Positions 1,919 to 41,658 of a stretch of DNA of 44,208 nt are shown piece by piece. The stretch's first letter is position 1. Every line of letters begins with the position of its first letter. Where the stretch lies: IMG/VR virus record IMGVR_UViG_3300043707_000036, positions 1-44,208 of that record. One strand, given 5' to 3'. Made by a program: the position numbers and the translations under genes. This stretch comes from a virus (lineage: Duplodnaviria > Caudoviricetes). Below the pieces are notes generated by a model, which was given only the letters and a program-made list of their open reading frames with translations, was not told where the DNA came from and did no database searches.

Positions 1919-2075
1919 CCAACAACCCCAACCTCTTTAACTCCTTGACCTGCCTGGCCTTAGCTAAGTTCTCCCTGCATGCGGCGGTCTTGGCCGCACT
2001 CCTCGACTCCGCAATCTTCCTCATATGTTCCAACCAGGGACCTGTAACTTGCTGGTGGGACTTGCTTTTCTTCAT
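1890..2075 (-). CDS. Small basic protein, possible DNA binding
   Basis: SRSAAKTAACRENLAKAR motif of a kind common in small basic phage proteins. Confidence 0.6.
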   Translation of the reverse strand: MKKSKSHQQVTGPWLEHMRKIAESRSAAKTAACRENLAKARQVKELKRLGLLDAQNSNSRT

Positions 2076-2097
2076 TCCAGCATGGTACTACACGAGC

Positions 2098-2652
2098 GTG
2101 CCCAAGCAAGTCAAACAACTAGCTCCTCTCCTCACCCTCTTTGAGACAGCCTCCGGCTGCTACAGCCTGCGGCTGAGCGAAGTCTCGAAACGTGCCACTT
2201 TCCTCTCCATAGAGGTAGCCAAGCTCCTCCCAGACGCCCGCTCCCTCCAGGTCATCACTCCCAACGACATGAAAGTCTTCGACCTGGCCTCCGAAAGACA
2301 GGAGGCCGAAGCGGCTGACGCCTCCTACAAAGCCTTCAAGGAACAAGAGTTAGCTCAACGCAACGAAGCTGACATGCCCCCCAATCCTTTCGAGGAAACC
2401 GGACCTCCCATGTCCATGGACCAGGTCGTCGAGATAGAAGCTCAGGAGGATCAGAAGTCCAATGGCCAAGACAAACGCTTCCGCAGTCCCAAGCCGCGCC
2501 TTGGCAAGATGGCTGGATTCGACGAGCCGTGCCAACGTTGCTCGGGCACTGGACAGGTCCAGACCCTCATGGAAGGTGGACGACCCGCCACCGGAACTTG
2601 TCCAGTTTGTCAGGGAGAGAAACAGATTAGGCGCTTCGGAGCCAAGCGCTGA
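2098..2652 (+). CDS. Protein with C-terminal DnaJ-type zinc finger (start uncertain)
   Basis: CQRCSGTG...CPVCQGEK (CxxCxGxG-type repeats). Confidence 0.7.
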   Translation: MPKQVKQLAPLLTLFETASGCYSLRLSEVSKRATFLSIEVAKLLPDARSLQVITPNDMKVFDLASERQEAEAADASYKAFKEQELAQRNEADMPPNPFEETGPPMSMDQVVEIEAQEDQKSNGQDKRFRSPKPRLGKMAGFDEPCQRCSGTGQVQTLMEGGRPATGTCPVCQGEKQIRRFGAKR

Positions 2653-2669
2653 CCTCCGGCCTCCCAACC

Positions 2670-2795
2670 ATGTGGTGGAGACGCCTGGTCTGCATCCTGG
2701 CAGGTCATCACTGGCCCCCCTGGACGGCCCTCGACGAGAACGTATGGTGCATGCGCTGTGGCAAACTCATTCAACAGAAAGGAACCCACAAATGA
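2670..2795 (+). CDS. 41-aa zinc-ribbon protein (C..GH.W...CxRCG type)
   Basis: Read manually: MWWRRLVCILAGHHWPPWTALDENVWCMRCGKLIQQKGTHK; ATGA overlap with next gene. Confidence 0.7.
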   Translation: MWWRRLVCILAGHHWPPWTALDENVWCMRCGKLIQQKGTHK

Positions 2796-3013
2796 CCCAC
2801 TCCCTGAAAGACAAACTGGAAGCTATCTTCACTTACCACGACAACCCCGACCTCATCCCTCACTACGAAGCCATCCGCGAGAAGGCCAGAGAATTTGCTG
2901 TAGTCATCCTTGACAACACTCCCGAGTGTGCCGACCAGAGTGCAGCCATCCGCCTGGTCCGCGAAGCAGTAATGACCGCCAACGCCTCCATCGCCCTGGG
3001 AGGATTGGTGTGA
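2792..3013 (+). CDS. Acb2/Tad1-like helical-hairpin protein (candidate immune-signal sponge)
   Basis: FTYH...YEAIREKAREFA.VI...TPECADQSAAIRLVREAVMTANASIA; AAAGGA RBS. Confidence 0.7.
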   Translation: MTHSLKDKLEAIFTYHDNPDLIPHYEAIREKAREFAVVILDNTPECADQSAAIRLVREAVMTANASIALGGLV

Positions 3014-29083: not shown

Positions 29084-29205
29084 TGCTACAAGGAACTTGT
29101 GACTGGACTCATGTCATGGAGAACGAAGGCCTGGGTGGGTTGATCGTAGCCATTATCTGGGGAATCTGGAGCTGGTTCAGGCGGCATAAGACTGCTACTA
29201 AGTAA
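29080..29205 (+). CDS. 41-aa single-TM protein (holin-like candidate)
   Basis: Read manually: ...GLGGLIVAIIWGIWSWFRRHKTATK; ATGA coupled; last gene of late operon. Confidence 0.5.
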   Translation: MMLQGTCDWTHVMENEGLGGLIVAIIWGIWSWFRRHKTATK

Positions 29206-30391
29206 GTGGCTGCATCTCTCCCAGGTTGGGGCCAACCTTCAGCTCAACTCCCACTGACAGGCCTCCAAGCTCCGGGAATGGCTTGGTCATGGTTTGCTGA
29301 ACTTGGCGGGCAACCTGGTCTACGTCATTCTCTGGAACCTCTATCCAAAACGAATCATGAACCAGGTTCCTGAGACCAGCAGCTACTGCCCGGTGCTCGA
29401 CTAGCTCCAACAGGTACTCGGTCTGCATGGCCGAGGCATCACTGGAGGGGACGAAGGCCACAGCCCGCTTGGCATCCTCCCCATGCACCCACTTCCACTT
29501 CTCCCCAGTAAGCTGCTGTTCAGCTGGAGTTGTCCTCTTCCGGTTGTACACAGAGAAGAAGTAGTGCCTGTACTGGAAGTGATTGTCCAGGTAGGTCTCC
29601 AAGTGGGCCCGGTCTATGGTTGCCTGCTGCCACTGTCTCAACTTGGGAAATAGTCCAAAGTAGAACTCCTGGAACTCCTTGGCCTTCTTCCTGGTGGGAA
29701 AGTACTCCGGGTACTCATCATGTAATCCAAAGTGACTCAGGAGGTAGTTCGATCCGTGGACTCCCCTTTTGGCTGCTTCCCTGATCTCCGGGTAGTCGTG
29801 CTTGAACTCGTGGAACTCAACCTTGAGGGTGGCATCGTCCAGACCAAGGTTGACGCTCTGGCCCGTCCAGTGGAGTCCCACGAAATCGTGAATTCCCAGC
29901 TTAGCCAGTCGTATGTAGTCTGGGTCTCCGGCACAGAACCCAACAAGTACTGCCTCAATAGCGGAACTGTCTGCTTCGAGGAGGACATGACCAGGGGCAG
30001 CCACCAGCATGCGCCGGAAGAGTCGGGCCAGGTCATTTCTTGCCGGGATGTTCTGCAGATTAACCTGCCTAGAACTCTTGCGCCACGTCGACGGATTGAA
30101 GCCATAAGTCGTGCCCACACGGCCATCACCTCTCAGCTTCCAGATGTAGGTACTGATCATCTTCTCCCGGCGTTGACATTCCAGAATGGTCTGAAACACC
30201 GGAAACTTTTTGGCAAACCTTTCCAGGTGCTTGCCGTCACTAGTCTCATCCCCAGTTTTACGCTTCCTGGGGACTTTGAGCTTGTAGTGCCTCACCAAGT
30301 CGAGCTTCTGTCTCCAGCTGGCAGGATTGAACTCCAAGAGCTGCTCATACTCCGTGACCTTGCCCGTGTCTCCACACTTCTTACAGGTCAA
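29198..30391 (-). CDS. polA: Family A DNA polymerase, C-terminal (polymerase) part of split gene
   Basis: FNPAS..Q, NLQNIP, motif A LLEADSSAIE, motif B R...K...HGSNY, motif C LVHDS; TTG start 30391 with GAGGAG RBS giving MTCKKCGDTG. Confidence 0.92.
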   Translation of the reverse strand: MTCKKCGDTGKVTEYEQLLEFNPASWRQKLDLVRHYKLKVPRKRKTGDETSDGKHLERFAKKFPVFQTILECQRREKMISTYIWKLRGDGRVGTTYGFNPSTWRKSSRQVNLQNIPARNDLARLFRRMLVAAPGHVLLEADSSAIEAVLVGFCAGDPDYIRLAKLGIHDFVGLHWTGQSVNLGLDDATLKVEFHEFKHDYPEIREAAKRGVHGSNYLLSHFGLHDEYPEYFPTRKKAKEFQEFYFGLFPKLRQWQQATIDRAHLETYLDNHFQYRHYFFSVYNRKRTTPAEQQLTGEKWKWVHGEDAKRAVAFVPSSDASAMQTEYLLELVEHRAVAAGLRNLVHDSFWIEVPENDVDQVARQVQQTMTKPFPELGGLSVGVELKVGPNLGEMQPLT

Positions 30392-30555
30392 ACGAATCTC
30401 CTCTCCACCTCTTTGGGAACCTCTATCCCAGCCCTCCTGAGCAGCTCCCACAACATCCACAGGTTGACGTTGCACTCCGCTCCGTCACAGTGCTTGCGGT
30501 GGTGGTCGGCCAGGTTCAGGGCATTCATCAACAGAGCCTCATCTAAGACATTCAT
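30388..30555 (-). CDS. 55-aa hypothetical protein inside polA split
   Basis: Read manually: MNVLDEALLMNALNLADHHRKHCDGAECNVNLWMLWELLRRAGIEVPKEVERRFV; ATGA and TTGA overlaps. Confidence 0.7.
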   Translation of the reverse strand: MNVLDEALLMNALNLADHHRKHCDGAECNVNLWMLWELLRRAGIEVPKEVERRFV

Positions 30556-30743
30556 TCACCTGGCCCCCTATCCTGTAGTCCCAACCTCTTGACCTCATCC
30601 AGCCAATCGTTGCGTCCCTGGAGCCACTGCCAGGCTGGACTTGACCCAAGACGCAGCAACTCAGCAGCTCTGCGGATGAGGGCCTGCTGGCTGTGGATGA
30701 CCCTGGCCAACTCTCCCTTGCTGGGCTGAGCTTCATAGGTCAC
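30552..30743 (-). CDS. RAAELL-family small protein inside polA split
   Basis: QQALIRRAAELLRLGSSPAWQWLQGRNDWL. Confidence 0.75.
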   Translation of the reverse strand: MTYEAQPSKGELARVIHSQQALIRRAAELLRLGSSPAWQWLQGRNDWLDEVKRLGLQDRGPGE

Positions 30744-30970
30744 TTGGTTGCTCCCATATCTCCAAACTCCTCGAATACCTCGTTCAGACGGGTAATGAGG
30801 GCTGCCTGCTTCTGCATGAGTTTGGCATGTACCTGGAAGAGGTCATTGGAGTAGGCCACAGCATAGTCCTCGGCAAACTCAAACCACTCCACATCAGTCT
30901 CCGGTCCCCAGTTCTCTGGTGGATAGTGTTCCCTCACCCACTCCTTGTGAAACTCCTGTGCCTTCATCAT
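30740..30970 (-). CDS. Hypothetical protein inside polA split
   Basis: Coupled both sides. Confidence 0.75.
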   Translation of the reverse strand: MMKAQEFHKEWVREHYPPENWGPETDVEWFEFAEDYAVAYSNDLFQVHAKLMQKQAALITRLNEVFEEFGDMGATK

Positions 30971-31182
30971 TGGGGATGGACCGGCTGCTCGGCCTCCTGG
31001 AACAGCTCCTTCTGCTTACGATTGCGCCTGGACCTGGCTACAACCTGGTGGGCATTGTCTCCATCTGCTTGCTGGCGTGCCTTGAGCATCTCCTTGACCA
31101 CGTTCAAAACTGCCTCGGCTGCTGCGAGTGGAGCGGTTGCAAAGTAATCTACAACTCTGGCTTCTGGATCAACTTTCCTCAT
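30967..31182 (-). CDS. Hypothetical protein inside polA split
   Basis: MRKVDPEARVVDYFATAPL...; RBS within the end of the polA N-part; ATGA overlap. Confidence 0.75.
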   Translation of the reverse strand: MRKVDPEARVVDYFATAPLAAAEAVLNVVKEMLKARQQADGDNAHQVVARSRRNRKQKELFQEAEQPVHPQ

Positions 31183-32528
31183 ACCTCTACCTCCTTCGTG
31201 CAGAGCGGGCACTCAACTTCAACCGGCCTGGTACCCTCTCTGGCTTTCTTGAACCTGCGGCGTGGCCTGACCGCTTCCGGGACTTCCCCCTGGAGCCTCT
31301 CATAGGCCTCCTGGTACTCCCCTTCAAGTTTTTCCTTGAACCGACTTTGTTCAAGCCGGTCGACCAGGATTCCCGTGCGTCCCATGGTCTGCAAAAGGGG
31401 CAAGGCAGCCACACAGTGCCTTCTCCAGCGATCCCATCTGCCTTGTTTCTGAAGGTCAGTCTTAACTCCCAGATACAGCCTGAGGGTAGCGTCCGCATCG
31501 ACCGCACTGTAAAAAGCAGGCTGTGCCGAGTGAAGGTGTTTCCAGGGGAGCCCATCAAAGTAAAAAGGCGCAACAAACCCCAAGCCCTTGGGGAGGTCTG
31601 ACTGGAGGAAGTGCCATGCCCACATGGAGTCGTGTACTTCCCGGAACTCAAAGCCTTGGACCTCAAGTCTCGGCTTGTCGTAGTTCTGGTTGTGCATGAC
31701 CACGGTCGGGACCTGGGCAACAGACTGTCGAAACTTCGAGATGTATGGCTCCAGCCAGGGGAAGCTGACGCCAGATCCTGCAGTATGGCTGCAACTGGCA
31801 CGGACGATGGTATAGCTCTGGTCTTCTTCATCTATGGTCTCTTCACTCAACTTGGCTGACTCAGGGGTCTCTATGTCTACACTTAGTAAGTCTATTGGTC
31901 TATCCAAGTACTCACACATACTTACATAGTCATCTAGTATGTAACTAACAGGTATCCTCTGCCACTTACCCTGAGCTACTTCCTGGGCTCGGCGCAGGGC
32001 GAAGCAGAAGGGGCCGGTGAGTTTCTGCTGTCCCTGCATAATGAACGACGGATGAAATGTAGGCACAACCGGCACGCCGTAAGGACTGTCACACACATAG
32101 CTGTGACGCTCATCCAGACCACGAGCACCCACAAGCCGCTGAAGCGCCACGTTGCCCATAGCCACAATGACTCTAGGAGCACACCTATCAATAAGCCCAT
32201 CGAGATGGGGTCGGCAGTGGGCAAACGCCGCTGCCGCCTCCTGGTCAATCGGACGATCGAGTCGGTCATACCATCCCAACCTCCTGGGCTTGCACCACAC
32301 CGCATTGGAGATGAGCAGCTGGTGTCGATCCAGACCTAGTCTGTGGAGGCAGCGGTCCAGGAAGGCTCCAGCCGCGCCAGCGAACGGACGACCTTCCCGG
32401 ACCTCATCCGTCCAGGGGCTCTCGCCCACCAGCAGGATGCCGGAGGTGCCCAGGCCATCCGACTCCACCCTTCTCTCGCCGAAGGGCAGTTGGGGACAGC
32501 CTGAGCACACTGGACCAGCGTTAATCAT
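31179..32528 (-). CDS. polA: Uracil-DNA glycosylase (family 4-like) + 3'-5' exonuclease: N-terminal part of split PolA
   Basis: CxxC, LLVGESP..E...GRPFAG.AG, SNAVWC.P, PTFHPS; ExoI DIET, ExoII HNQNYD, ExoIII YSAVDAD; M..TGILVD; ends CPLCTKEVEV. Confidence 0.92.
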   Translation of the reverse strand: MINAGPVCSGCPQLPFGERRVESDGLGTSGILLVGESPWTDEVREGRPFAGAAGAFLDRCLHRLGLDRHQLLISNAVWCKPRRLGWYDRLDRPIDQEAAAAFAHCRPHLDGLIDRCAPRVIVAMGNVALQRLVGARGLDERHSYVCDSPYGVPVVPTFHPSFIMQGQQKLTGPFCFALRRAQEVAQGKWQRIPVSYILDDYVSMCEYLDRPIDLLSVDIETPESAKLSEETIDEEDQSYTIVRASCSHTAGSGVSFPWLEPYISKFRQSVAQVPTVVMHNQNYDKPRLEVQGFEFREVHDSMWAWHFLQSDLPKGLGFVAPFYFDGLPWKHLHSAQPAFYSAVDADATLRLYLGVKTDLQKQGRWDRWRRHCVAALPLLQTMGRTGILVDRLEQSRFKEKLEGEYQEAYERLQGEVPEAVRPRRRFKKAREGTRPVEVECPLCTKEVEV

Positions 32529-32734
32529 CTACCTTGCTCGAACAAACTGATTATGTCGGACGGTTGTACATTCTTCACTAGCACCCGGTGATGGAGTCGC
32601 TTTGTACCCATGTCCTCTACCAGGGCCCACTTACGTCCCTTCTTGAGGAGCAGAGCGTGATACCACCCTCCCTTGCGGGGATGCCAGTAACGAACTACAC
32701 TGTAAGCCTGCTTCTTAGTCTGCTTCATAGTCAT
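32525..32734 (-). CDS. Small basic beta protein
   Basis: AAGGAG RBS, ATGA coupled. Confidence 0.7.
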   Translation of the reverse strand: MTMKQTKKQAYSVVRYWHPRKGGWYHALLLKKGRKWALVEDMGTKRLHHRVLVKNVQPSDIISLFEQGR

Positions 32735-33993: not shown

Positions 33994-34301
33994 TTGATCT
34001 TCTCCGGTCCTCGATCATGGTCCCCTAGTTCTGGCCGATACTTGAAGCCTCTGGTGGCATACTCCATGGCCTCCCTATCTCTGCCCTGATGGAGCATGGT
34101 GGTGATTACTGCCTGCTCCTGGTTGCTGGCCCACACCACCCCAATGGTCCCAGGCCGGTGACTGGAATAGGCAACTGGAAGCAGTATCCACTGCACCTCG
34201 AAAGGGTCGTGCTGCTTAATCCTAGCCATGGACTCATCATCCAGCACAATCAACATGTCGGCATAGCCATTCCCCCGGTCTCGGCAAACCAGCAAGCTCA
34301 T
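33990..34301 (-). CDS. Hypothetical protein
   Basis: GGAGGGG RBS, ATGA coupled. Confidence 0.7.
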   Translation of the reverse strand: MSLLVCRDRGNGYADMLIVLDDESMARIKQHDPFEVQWILLPVAYSSHRPGTIGVVWASNQEQAVITTMLHQGRDREAMEYATRGFKYRPELGDHDRGPEKIK

Positions 34302-34507
34302 TTCCCCTCCATCTTGACAAGTTCCAGCCAACGGTCCCGCTTTCCGTACCAGTTGGCTCTACCCTTGGGCCACAGCCCTACAGGATGTTTGAGAAGCTCG
34401 GCAGCCTGCTGGAGGAGAGCATACTGCTCCTTAATGATCAAGGCATACTCGGAAATGGTGGCATAGGCTTTCTCCGCTGCCAGGACCTCATCATCCTGTT
34501 GGTTCAT
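34298..34507 (-). CDS. RAAELL-family small protein
   Basis: EQYALLQQAAELL...W...RDRWLE. Confidence 0.75.
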   Translation of the reverse strand: MNQQDDEVLAAEKAYATISEYALIIKEQYALLQQAAELLKHPVGLWPKGRANWYGKRDRWLELVKMEGK

Positions 34508-34761
34508 TTCTTCACCTCATCCAGTCCAGCATCCTGCAACCACTTCCTCAAGTCCTGGTGATATTCAGGGGGCGCAACCGTGATGTAGCGGGTCAGCAGC
34601 TCGGCGGCCCGGATGATGAGATTGTCTTTTACATTCTCAGGATCGTCGGCCTCGTCAGTTGTCATTTTAGGCGGAAGAATAAAGCTGGCGGTTCTCAAGG
34701 TTCTGCGTCGCACTCCGGGGCAAAGTTGCTCTAAGGCATCTTCGAGTCTAGTGTCCTTCAC
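34504..34761 (-). CDS. RAAELL-family small protein
   Basis: KDNLIIRAAELL...RKWLQDAGL. Confidence 0.75.
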   Translation of the reverse strand: MKDTRLEDALEQLCPGVRRRTLRTASFILPPKMTTDEADDPENVKDNLIIRAAELLTRYITVAPPEYHQDLRKWLQDAGLDEVKK

Positions 34762-35012: not shown

Positions 35013-35197
35013 TTCTTGTCCTCCGCAGCTAGGCCTATGATCGAATTGAGTATGCCCACCGGCACATAGACTATGTACAGAAACCACACCAACCTATCTG
35101 GATGGATAGCCTTCAGGATCGAGTACAACAGAAAGTACCAGATAGGTCCTGACACAAATACGAACAGTAGCATCGACACTACTTTGCCTCGACTCAC
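35009..35197 (-). CDS. Small two-TM membrane protein
   Basis: Hydrophobic; coupled. Confidence 0.7.
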   Translation of the reverse strand: MSRGKVVSMLLFVFVSGPIWYFLLYSILKAIHPDRLVWFLYIVYVPVGILNSIIGLAAEDKK

Positions 35198-35391
35198 TTG
35201 TCCTCCAGGCTCATCCCAGCATCAATGAGCCACCGTTTGCGTCCTTCGATCCATTGCCAAGCCGGATTGTGGCCCAGGTGTAGCAGGTCGGCGGCCCTTT
35301 TGATAAGAGCATCCTTCTGTTCCAGGCACTCCATCAACTGTTCAATGGCCTTGATTGCTAGGTCAGGGTCATTCACAGGTCCCAGGATCAT
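35194..35391 (-). CDS. RAAELL-family small protein
   Basis: KDALIKRAADLLHLGHNPAWQWIEGRKRWLIDAGM. Confidence 0.75.
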   Translation of the reverse strand: MILGPVNDPDLAIKAIEQLMECLEQKDALIKRAADLLHLGHNPAWQWIEGRKRWLIDAGMSLEDK

Positions 35392-35543
35392 GGCTCCTCC
35401 TTCTTCTTATAGTTCCCCTCGAAAGACCACTCCTGGTCAGTCTCATCCTCCGGGTAACGCTGCTTAAGTGCTTTCTGAATTGGGGACTCTCGGAAGAGGA
35501 TTTCCGCCCACCGCTTGACCAACTCCTCTAACTTCGGATTCAT
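35388..35543 (-). CDS. 51-aa hypothetical protein
   Basis: Read manually: MNPKLEELVKRWAEILFRESPIQKALKQRYPE...; ATGA overlaps both sides. Confidence 0.65.
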   Translation of the reverse strand: MNPKLEELVKRWAEILFRESPIQKALKQRYPEDETDQEWSFEGNYKKKEEP

Positions 35544-41115: not shown

Positions 41116-41658
41116 TTATGCTTGCCTCCGTACCCACTTTTGCGTCAGTCCGACAGCAACCAGGCCTGTCGCAATCAACAACAAGGAGGCCGGTTCCGGC
41201 ACTGTCGATACTCTGCTAGTGAGTACCTGAGTGCTAAGATTGCCGTGGTTGTCCTCGATCACGGCAGCCGCACCGTTCCGAAAATTGGCGTTCAGGAAAG
41301 TAGTTCCACCCACTATGGAGATGGTGCCACCTGTGAACGTCCCCTGGAATAGTTCCTTACCATTCAATCCATCAACGTCTACTGTGCCTCCCATGAAAGA
41401 GAAGCCTGAGGTGGAAGTCATCAGAGTCCCCGAGAGGACTGTAATGCTCCCCAGAATGCCGTGCTGCATGGTGCCAGTGGTGATGTCCTCGATGAGGGTC
41501 AGCTGGTCCCTGACTCCCCAGAACCTTCCTGCGGCAATGCGCCCGAATATAGTCGCAGTCCCAGCAGCTATGTTGCCCGAGCCCTGAAAGTCGAAACTAT
41601 CTGCGACTGTCAGGGGACAGAAGAATAGCAGCAAAGCCACTACTAGCGCTAACTTCAT
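41116..41658 (-). CDS. PEP-CTERM surface protein
   Basis: Signal peptide MKLALVVALLLFFCPLTVA-D; C-terminal VPEPASLLLIATGLVAVG...RR. Confidence 0.92.
   Translation of the reverse strand: MKLALVVALLLFFCPLTVADSFDFQGSGNIAAGTATIFGRIAAGRFWGVRDQLTLIEDITTGTMQHGILGSITVLSGTLMTSTSGFSFMGGTVDVDGLNGKELFQGTFTGGTISIVGGTTFLNANFRNGAAAVIEDNHGNLSTQVLTSRVSTVPEPASLLLIATGLVAVGLTQKWVRRQA

Follow-up and report, generated by a model that had tools for sequence, protein, structure and literature searches.

Phage DNA polymerases divided between two genes and family A polymerases (PolA) carrying an intact finger are both already in print; what appears to be new in the locus described here is a PolA split through its finger, found in a 44,208-nucleotide stretch of viral DNA (IMG/VR record IMGVR_UViG_3300043707_000036; Duplodnaviria, Caudoviricetes; hereafter the window). 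Among family A enzymes, the S-SBP1-like T7-type PolA has undergone gene fission into two genes whose products are predicted to reassemble (Czernecki 2023, PMC10201439), and the OM43 phages MEP401 and MEP402 encode the polymerase in two open reading frames (ORFs) with a small unknown ORF between them (PMC10580990). PhiKZ has a split family B enzyme (bioRxiv 10.64898/2026.09.30.755723), and in the T4-like phages 44RR, 31, 25, 133 and 65 gp43 is cut at a variable hairpin's tip, a site described as an insertion hotspot, with the halves 2 bp to 3 kb apart (PMC3061061). HMO-2011-type phages are defined by an intact finger in PolA, a partial DnaJ central domain (PMC9038755, PMC6918029); the word 'split' is absent from PMC9038755, and 'zinc' occurs 0 times in the main text of PMC10201439. 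Zinc sites between chains are described for the CD4/CD8-Lck clasp and the Rad50 hook (PMC12198760, PMC5093744), and Aeh1 NrdA, split by mobE, is an essential phage enzyme that works as two pieces, has a gene lying within the break and assembles with the help of its new termini (PMC3045599). In our literature search, which had subscription papers and supplements outside its scope, no polymerase split through its finger was found.

The polymerase of the window is encoded on the minus strand by two genes with four small ORFs in the gap between them (Table 1). An earlier reading made from the letters alone (the sequence-only reading) had placed all six, and its coordinates were confirmed. The N-terminal half (N-half) comprises a uracil-DNA glycosylase (UDG) of family 4, a 3'-5' exonuclease, the first palm strand, the thumb's first helix, a single strand of the hairpin and a CxxC knuckle. 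The C-terminal half (C-half) supplies the second knuckle, the second hairpin strand, the remaining thumb, the palm and the fingers; it opens with T-CKKCGDTG, followed by the thumb motif EFNPASWRQ. Membership in family A is based on a PF00476 match above cutoff together with motifs A, B and C, and both halves match phrog_17. The catalytic motifs could all be located, as had been claimed: the UDG Cys ligands, GESP/FHPS and Exo I-III in the N-half, and Pol A, B and C in the C-half (D141 in motif A; K208, H212 and Y216 in motif B; D346 in motif C). All five gene junctions are 4-nt start/stop overlaps (ATGA, ATGA, GTGA, ATGA, TTGA), and the C-half restarts in another frame than the N-half (stop 31179, restart 30391). 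The codon TTG 30391 is the presumed start of the C-half; relatives begin 1-3 residues ahead of the first Cys, and in-frame GTG codons are present upstream. We propose that the two separately translated subunits probably fold into one UDG-exonuclease-polymerase, in which the four Cys would bind one zinc that ties the cut strands at the thumb tip.

The described systems each differ from this locus. The S-SBP1-like cut lies between exonuclease and polymerase, in overlapping genes for which the cited text describes no cargo and no UDG; membership in that group was rejected, as the N-half of the window extends ~100 residues beyond Exo III into palm and thumb. In MEP401 the cut falls just ahead of motif A, after NLQN, with one ORF in the gap, and there are neither Cys pairs at the ends nor a UDG. 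The split of gp43 is in a family B enzyme and at the fingers tip rather than the thumb tip, and the cited text describes no metal site. HMO-2011-type PolA resembles the polymerase of the window as a phage family A enzyme with a four-Cys CxxCxGxG-type finger in the thumb region, but is a single chain without UDG. Its finger follows an NLNS..Q motif, whereas that of the window precedes the matching FNP.S..Q motif, with 20% identity over the region; HMO-2011-type membership was rejected, as the pairs of the window are on two chains and ahead of the motif, and the N-half pair is without GxG. The order of family-4 UDG, exonuclease and PolA is shared with the enzymes of SPO1, SP-10, SP-15 and N4-like phages (PMC10201439; phrog_17). 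There too the UDG is N-terminal to exonuclease and polymerase, but the window has two chains in place of the single polypeptide, a His four residues past the motif B Lys, and a variable thumb-tip insert.

The four Cys occur as one finger in unsplit relatives. A search for longer relatives of the N-half returned 104 proteins, the best of which are single-chain UDG-exonuclease-PolA enzymes of 800-1100 aa that carry PF03167 and PF00476 and hold a variable insert at the position of the break. Of the closest 31 full-length relatives, 29 could be called; 6 carry a four-Cys finger and 23 have none. In the fused protein P0021, CxxC..CxxC is followed by TGKVTEY, which matches the head of the window's C-half. 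An AlphaFold2 model of P0021 (74 rows; predicted local distance difference test (pLDDT) 93.3, predicted template-modelling score (pTM) 0.90) has a long first thumb helix, a strand at 441-446, the finger and a return strand at 471-478, and in single-chain relatives the finger is thus predicted to sit on a thumb-tip hairpin. The alignment check proposed in the sequence-only reading came out in its favour: in unsplit relatives the two Cys pairs belong to one thumb insertion. A fused relative folds like Klenow (E 7e-24). The Pol I match begins directly after the insert, which falls between the thumb helices that we take to be H and H1. In T7 the thioredoxin-binding domain sits between thumb helices H and H1 (PMC11339088, PMC10201439).

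That the locus is a dead interrupted gene or an assembly error deserves hardly any credence, even though the closest match to the polymerase in cultured phages reaches just 29% identity. A 2010-nt contig of run X6, which is not flagged as a possible source of the record, crosses the break, covering 29814-31823 with 0 differences, so the misassembly that the sequence-only reading had allowed for was not seen; this is a single break-spanning contig in one of four runs compared, and the listed runs are all soil of one year and maybe of one campaign. All 8 of the strain differences listed sit in the N-half and are synonymous third-position changes, suggesting that the N-half is under purifying selection. 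The C-half is present on 6 contigs and has exactly one match within the record; exact look-ups of the two halves gave no entry, probably owing to differing start codons. Based on the spanning contig, the synonymous differences, the intact motifs and the 8 other arrangements with the same cut (see below), misassembly and pseudogene were rejected. The strains of runs X6-X8 diverge from the window at 32528-32725, directly upstream of the polymerase start codon, where the preceding gene is replaced.

Splicing of the RNA or of the protein, or a ribosome hop, could also give back a single chain; we regard this as very improbable. Phage polymerase genes often contain introns and inteins. Intein-like in-frame inserts (Cys start, Asn end) are found elsewhere in two C-halves, within motif B and ahead of motif C (L017:5552-6495, L013:6002-6723), although Pfam did not name them as inteins, and an HNH endonuclease ORF lies shortly upstream of a Cys-headed C-half on a contig without N-half (L062:312-545). 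At the break of the window, however, no intein, intron-like or homing-endonuclease signature was found, in agreement with the sequence-only reading: Rfam at gathering score gave no match in the window or six related loci, and neither the halves nor the four intervening ORFs matched an intein or HNH family of Pfam, in searches whose libraries miss divergent elements. Furthermore, gaps range from overlap to 1413 nt with unrelated genes inside, the N-tails, 6-29 aa long counted from the first Cys, and the C-heads are freely variable, frames differ, and the C-half has its own start signal. Intron, intein and ribosome hop were rejected on these grounds. A scan for promoters and terminators returned 0 sites resembling the former and 2 resembling the latter, a yield not above that of shuffles, and none of them in the gap.

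The same cut recurs across the family. In near-length searches, among the matches listed (for the C-half the best 120 of 330), many separate N-halves and C-halves end or begin at the position of the break. Among the N-halves, 43 were callable: a Cys pair (CxxC or CxC) closes 22, 13 have no such pair and 8 end after a whole CxxC..HxC finger. On the C-side, 92 matches were read, of which 21 begin with a Cys pair; another 26 start at the break without Cys, picked by eye because a pattern count (37/92) contained false matches. Cys-free splits at the break are about as common as Cys splits. Of 139 genomic loci (138 fetched and the window, with duplicates between scans), 88 are fused and 17 split, while 34 could not be called. 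The split loci reduce to 9 distinct arrangements with differing cargo or none, so the expectation that related phages would show the same breakpoint with different cargo was borne out. Cys pairs are present on both halves in 6 of the 9, with gaps of 771-1413 nt or direct overlap. The UDG-PolA split at the thumb tip is thus real and conserved family-wide, and about half of the split forms likely have a zinc site between the subunits. A viral-contig scan for close relatives with the C-half alone gave no match; the related loci came from alignments.

Cuts also occur at other positions. In L064:2727-6227 a separate UDG gene is followed by a D12-class adenine methyltransferase and then by an exonuclease-polymerase with an intact finger, the cut falling between UDG and exonuclease; several proteins of ~680 aa likewise start at the exonuclease. 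L127:488-4047 encodes three pieces (UDG-exonuclease, thumb, palm-fingers) with one ORF per gap, and many matches of 320-360 aa (P0199-P0225) start at the same palm strand as the L127 piece. These cuts and the Cys-free splits indicate that surface loops in this family are prone to fission and that the finger is not needed for cutting. The N-halves that stop just past a whole CxxC..HxC finger (P0268, P0270, P0272, P0273, P0276, P0277, P0280 and P0283) form one clade (6/6 rows, support 100) and apparently represent a third kind of thumb-tip split; a scan for their genomic setting found no locus. In the fused loci L011, L014 and L020 a long insert resembles the helical-looking heads of the Cys-free C-halves P0180, P0184 and P0176. 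These fused forms are possible precursors or re-fusions, and the insert perhaps a second way to join halves.

Whether the halves come together around a shared zinc was evaluated from the pairing of the Cys and from complex prediction. Among 20 paired halves, Cys pairs are on both in 12, on neither in 8 and on one only in 0 (Fisher P = 8e-6). In the Cys-headed C-halves, the CxxC and a following Gly are at a fixed distance from FNP in 22/22 while neighbouring residues vary, and 21 such C-halves are 39-83% identical. A complex prediction with N-half residues 190-449, the C-half and zinc scored 0.83, compared to 0.00 for the best of 3 controls, a mark reached by 116 of 157 solved complexes and by 2 of 215 mismatched pairs. 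At least 97% of the contacts recur between runs, and the pLDDT of the partners is at least 86. The pair of chains thus passes the prediction. The Cys segments (N 432-443 and C 3-6) are both within the predicted interface and, by prediction, two conserved Cys on each of two chains are brought together, as in the Rad50 and CD4-Lck type of site.

Several points weigh against this interpretation. The Fisher test overstates the association, since the 20 pairs are related. Only 9 of them were seen in DNA; 11 were matched solely by equal length of their contigs, an approach checked on the L061 pair. Cys heads were chosen for having CxxC, so that only the spacing and the Gly are unselected, and many N-halves carry CxC rather than CxxC, as do some unsplit fingers. 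The complex score bears on the pairing of chains, and the ligand position is not in the output; moreover, the halves of a split gene can pass such a prediction through likeness to solved single-chain Pol I. The two-Cys ends could instead form disulfides or like-with-like zinc dimers. A reading in which the halves assemble but the Cys share no metal, being relics, disulfides or ligands of zinc between like subunits, we consider quite improbable. Some C-heads and N-tails (L006 type) each carry a full CxxCxGxG-like repeat and could self-pair. However, relics should decay on one side first, and no mixed pair was found over the whole range of identity; the fixed spacing equals that of the unsplit finger. 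The cytoplasm is reducing, which disfavours disulfides.

The opposite reading, in which the zinc clasp is the essential glue, so that the halves neither assemble nor work without it and the finger permitted the cut, is unlikely. In its favour are the absence of mixed pairs and the contrast between the close unsplit relatives, most of which lack the finger, and the split clade of the window, which keeps it throughout, as if being split raises the need for the finger. The Cys-free fused protein P0004 is also placed among Cys-split forms (support 90 and 93, not starred). Against it, Cys-free splits exist at the same site (3 of 9 split loci, 13 of 43 N-halves) and 8 N-halves end past the whole finger. 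The predicted interface of 76 + 81 residues is chiefly made of palm, thumb-helix and exonuclease contacts; the knuckles contribute 4/76 and 4/81 (8/157), and the 25 best-placed contacts all join N 367-389 to C 91-131, 273 or 321-328. The sequence-only reading had held that zinc re-joins the enzyme and that the finger makes the site tolerant to insertion; neither was borne out, as the interface is mostly elsewhere and the same cut occurs without Cys. It had also expected Cys at the break in homologues, which holds for the 22 of 43 N-halves that keep the pair and fails for the Cys-free forms. We conclude that a shared zinc is likely but would act as a putative clamp rather than as the main glue, and that zinc as essential glue is not likely. 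In the CD4/CD8-Lck clasp and the Rad50 hook, as in our proposal, two Cys from each chain hold one zinc. There, though, zinc drives the association of separate chains, whereas in the window the zinc site would make up little of an extensive interface and would derive from cutting one finger.

The history of splitting was examined with trees of both halves. In the polymerase-domain tree, built from 59 of 141 rows under quick LG+G4 and without the insert, split forms are intermingled with fused ones, with at least 10 changes. One clade of all splits (approximately unbiased (AU) test, p-AU 3e-60) and one clade of Cys-splits (p-AU 1e-59) were both rejected, in tests whose simpler model also rejected 5 of 71 true clades. 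A single origin of the split was thus rejected by tree topology. The N-half tree is less demanding, as its starred branches force just 2 changes for the Cys-splits. On both trees the starred clade of the window is all Cys-split (4/4 and 6/6 rows). Repeated fission, re-fusion and exchange of halves would be indistinguishable on an unrooted tree. A further-reaching version of our proposal seems to us possible but doubtful. In it, fingers halved by gene fission would have turned repeatedly within this one polymerase family into functional zinc clasps between subunits, on which processivity or assembly depends, and zinc binding between the two chains would set the activity of a replicative polymerase.

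Table 1 Features of the split polymerase locus, the remaining window and related loci
Feature	Position	Strand	Remarks
N-terminal subunit gene, 449 aa	31179..32528	-	UDG, exonuclease, CxxC knuckle; relatives of the same extent
UDG domain, residues 29-170, GESP + FHPS motifs	32019..32444	-	PF03167, E 4.7e-26
CPLC (C440, C443), first finger half, six residues ahead of stop	31200..31211	-	sequence; predicted interface
Cargo ORF 1, 71 aa	30967..31182	-	no family; called as gene on 7 contigs
Cargo ORF 2, 76 aa	30740..30970	-	no family
Cargo ORF 3, 63 aa	30552..30743	-	paralogue of small ORFs elsewhere in the phage
Cargo ORF 4, 55 aa	30388..30555	-	no family; stop overlaps TTG start of polymerase half
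GAGGAG, ribosome-binding-site-like motif, 6 nt ahead of TTG 30391	30398..30403	-	sequence
C-terminal subunit gene, 397 aa, presumed start TTG 30391	29198..30391	-	PF00476, E 3e-32
CKKC (C3, C6) then GDTG, second finger half	30374..30385	-	sequence; predicted interface
Motif B	29744-29770	-	
ORF with C-terminal DnaJ-like CxxCxGxG match	1945-2652	+	sub-cutoff, E 6e-4
ORF with Acb2/Tad1 hairpin domain	2462-3013	+	PF24729, E 2e-9
ORF with PEP-CTERM motif	41116-41658	-	
Cys-split gaps (stop to match)			window 788 nt; L017 771; L061 1006; L132 1386; L013 1413
Cys-split L006			halves overlap, no cargo
Cys-free splits, 3/9			L004 one ORF in gap; L012, L016 no cargo

The genes in the break appear to be ordinary accessory genes that came into a gap already present. 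None of the four ORFs matched a Pfam or PHROG family. Cargo ORF 1 has a weak blastp match (E 0.009, 36% over 47 aa) to the first cargo ORF of L017, and cargo ORF 3 is similar to the ORF at 35197-35406 of the window (53% over 38 aa, E 1e-14 pairwise) and more weakly to that at 34301-34516. One family of small genes is found within the break in L017 and L061 and outside the break in L013, L132 and the fused L064; the cargo of L132 includes an FkbM-type methyltransferase. The GC content at second codon positions of the four ORFs is low (0.31-0.48), as in the phage's own genes, and the GC content of the gap equals that of its surroundings, giving no hint that foreign DNA entered recently. Splits without cargo, such as L006, lead us to infer the order, cut first and cargo later. 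In Aeh1 NrdA the tails arrived with the inserted endonuclease; the cargo of the window is without endonuclease, and the terminal motifs of the two polymerase halves pre-exist in unsplit relatives.

The record is 77% complete (CheckV). Terminase, portal, capsid and tail genes are on the plus strand and the replication block with the split polymerase on the minus strand. The runs in which the polymerase region occurs are soil metagenomes; no RNA run with the region was found, which has no bearing on whether it is expressed. A genome scan gave 2 loci of the family, both in Acidobacteriota metagenome-assembled genomes, which, with the PEP-CTERM ORF of the phage, weakly hints at the host. The ORF with the Acb2/Tad1 hairpin domain possibly encodes an anti-defence protein.

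Motif B of the C-half has a His four residues past its Lys. This His is invariant in 45 aligned C-halves and occurs in 142 of 149 motif matches among the fetched proteins. If K208 is the equivalent of K758, as the motif suggests, the His would be at the position of E. coli residue 762. A PolA screen retains only F, L or Y at that position (PMC9069017); the C-half, which carries His, fails it.

Each half would be translated separately, through termination-reinitiation from one overlapping gene to the next. The N-half would supply the first palm strand, the first thumb helix and one strand of the hairpin, and the C-half the remainder. The putative zinc would close the two loose ends of the hairpin and likely steady the DNA-facing thumb extension. 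Cutting may be tolerated, whether zinc is present or not, since the site is a loop at the surface of an interlocked fold, and once open, the gap would take up small accessory genes from the phage's own pool.

If our proposal is correct, the locus would offer a natural example in which gene fission has converted an intramolecular zinc finger into a metal site between two chains. One family shows all states, namely fused forms that have the finger or lack it, forms cut through the finger, Cys-free splits and apparently splits past the finger, which makes the origin of inter-chain zinc sites directly testable. Split halves resemble fragments to annotation, and the screen that retains only F, L or Y at position 762 would drop the family. 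The locus also marks the thumb tip of PolA as a site of natural splitting, of use in the engineering of two-part polymerases.

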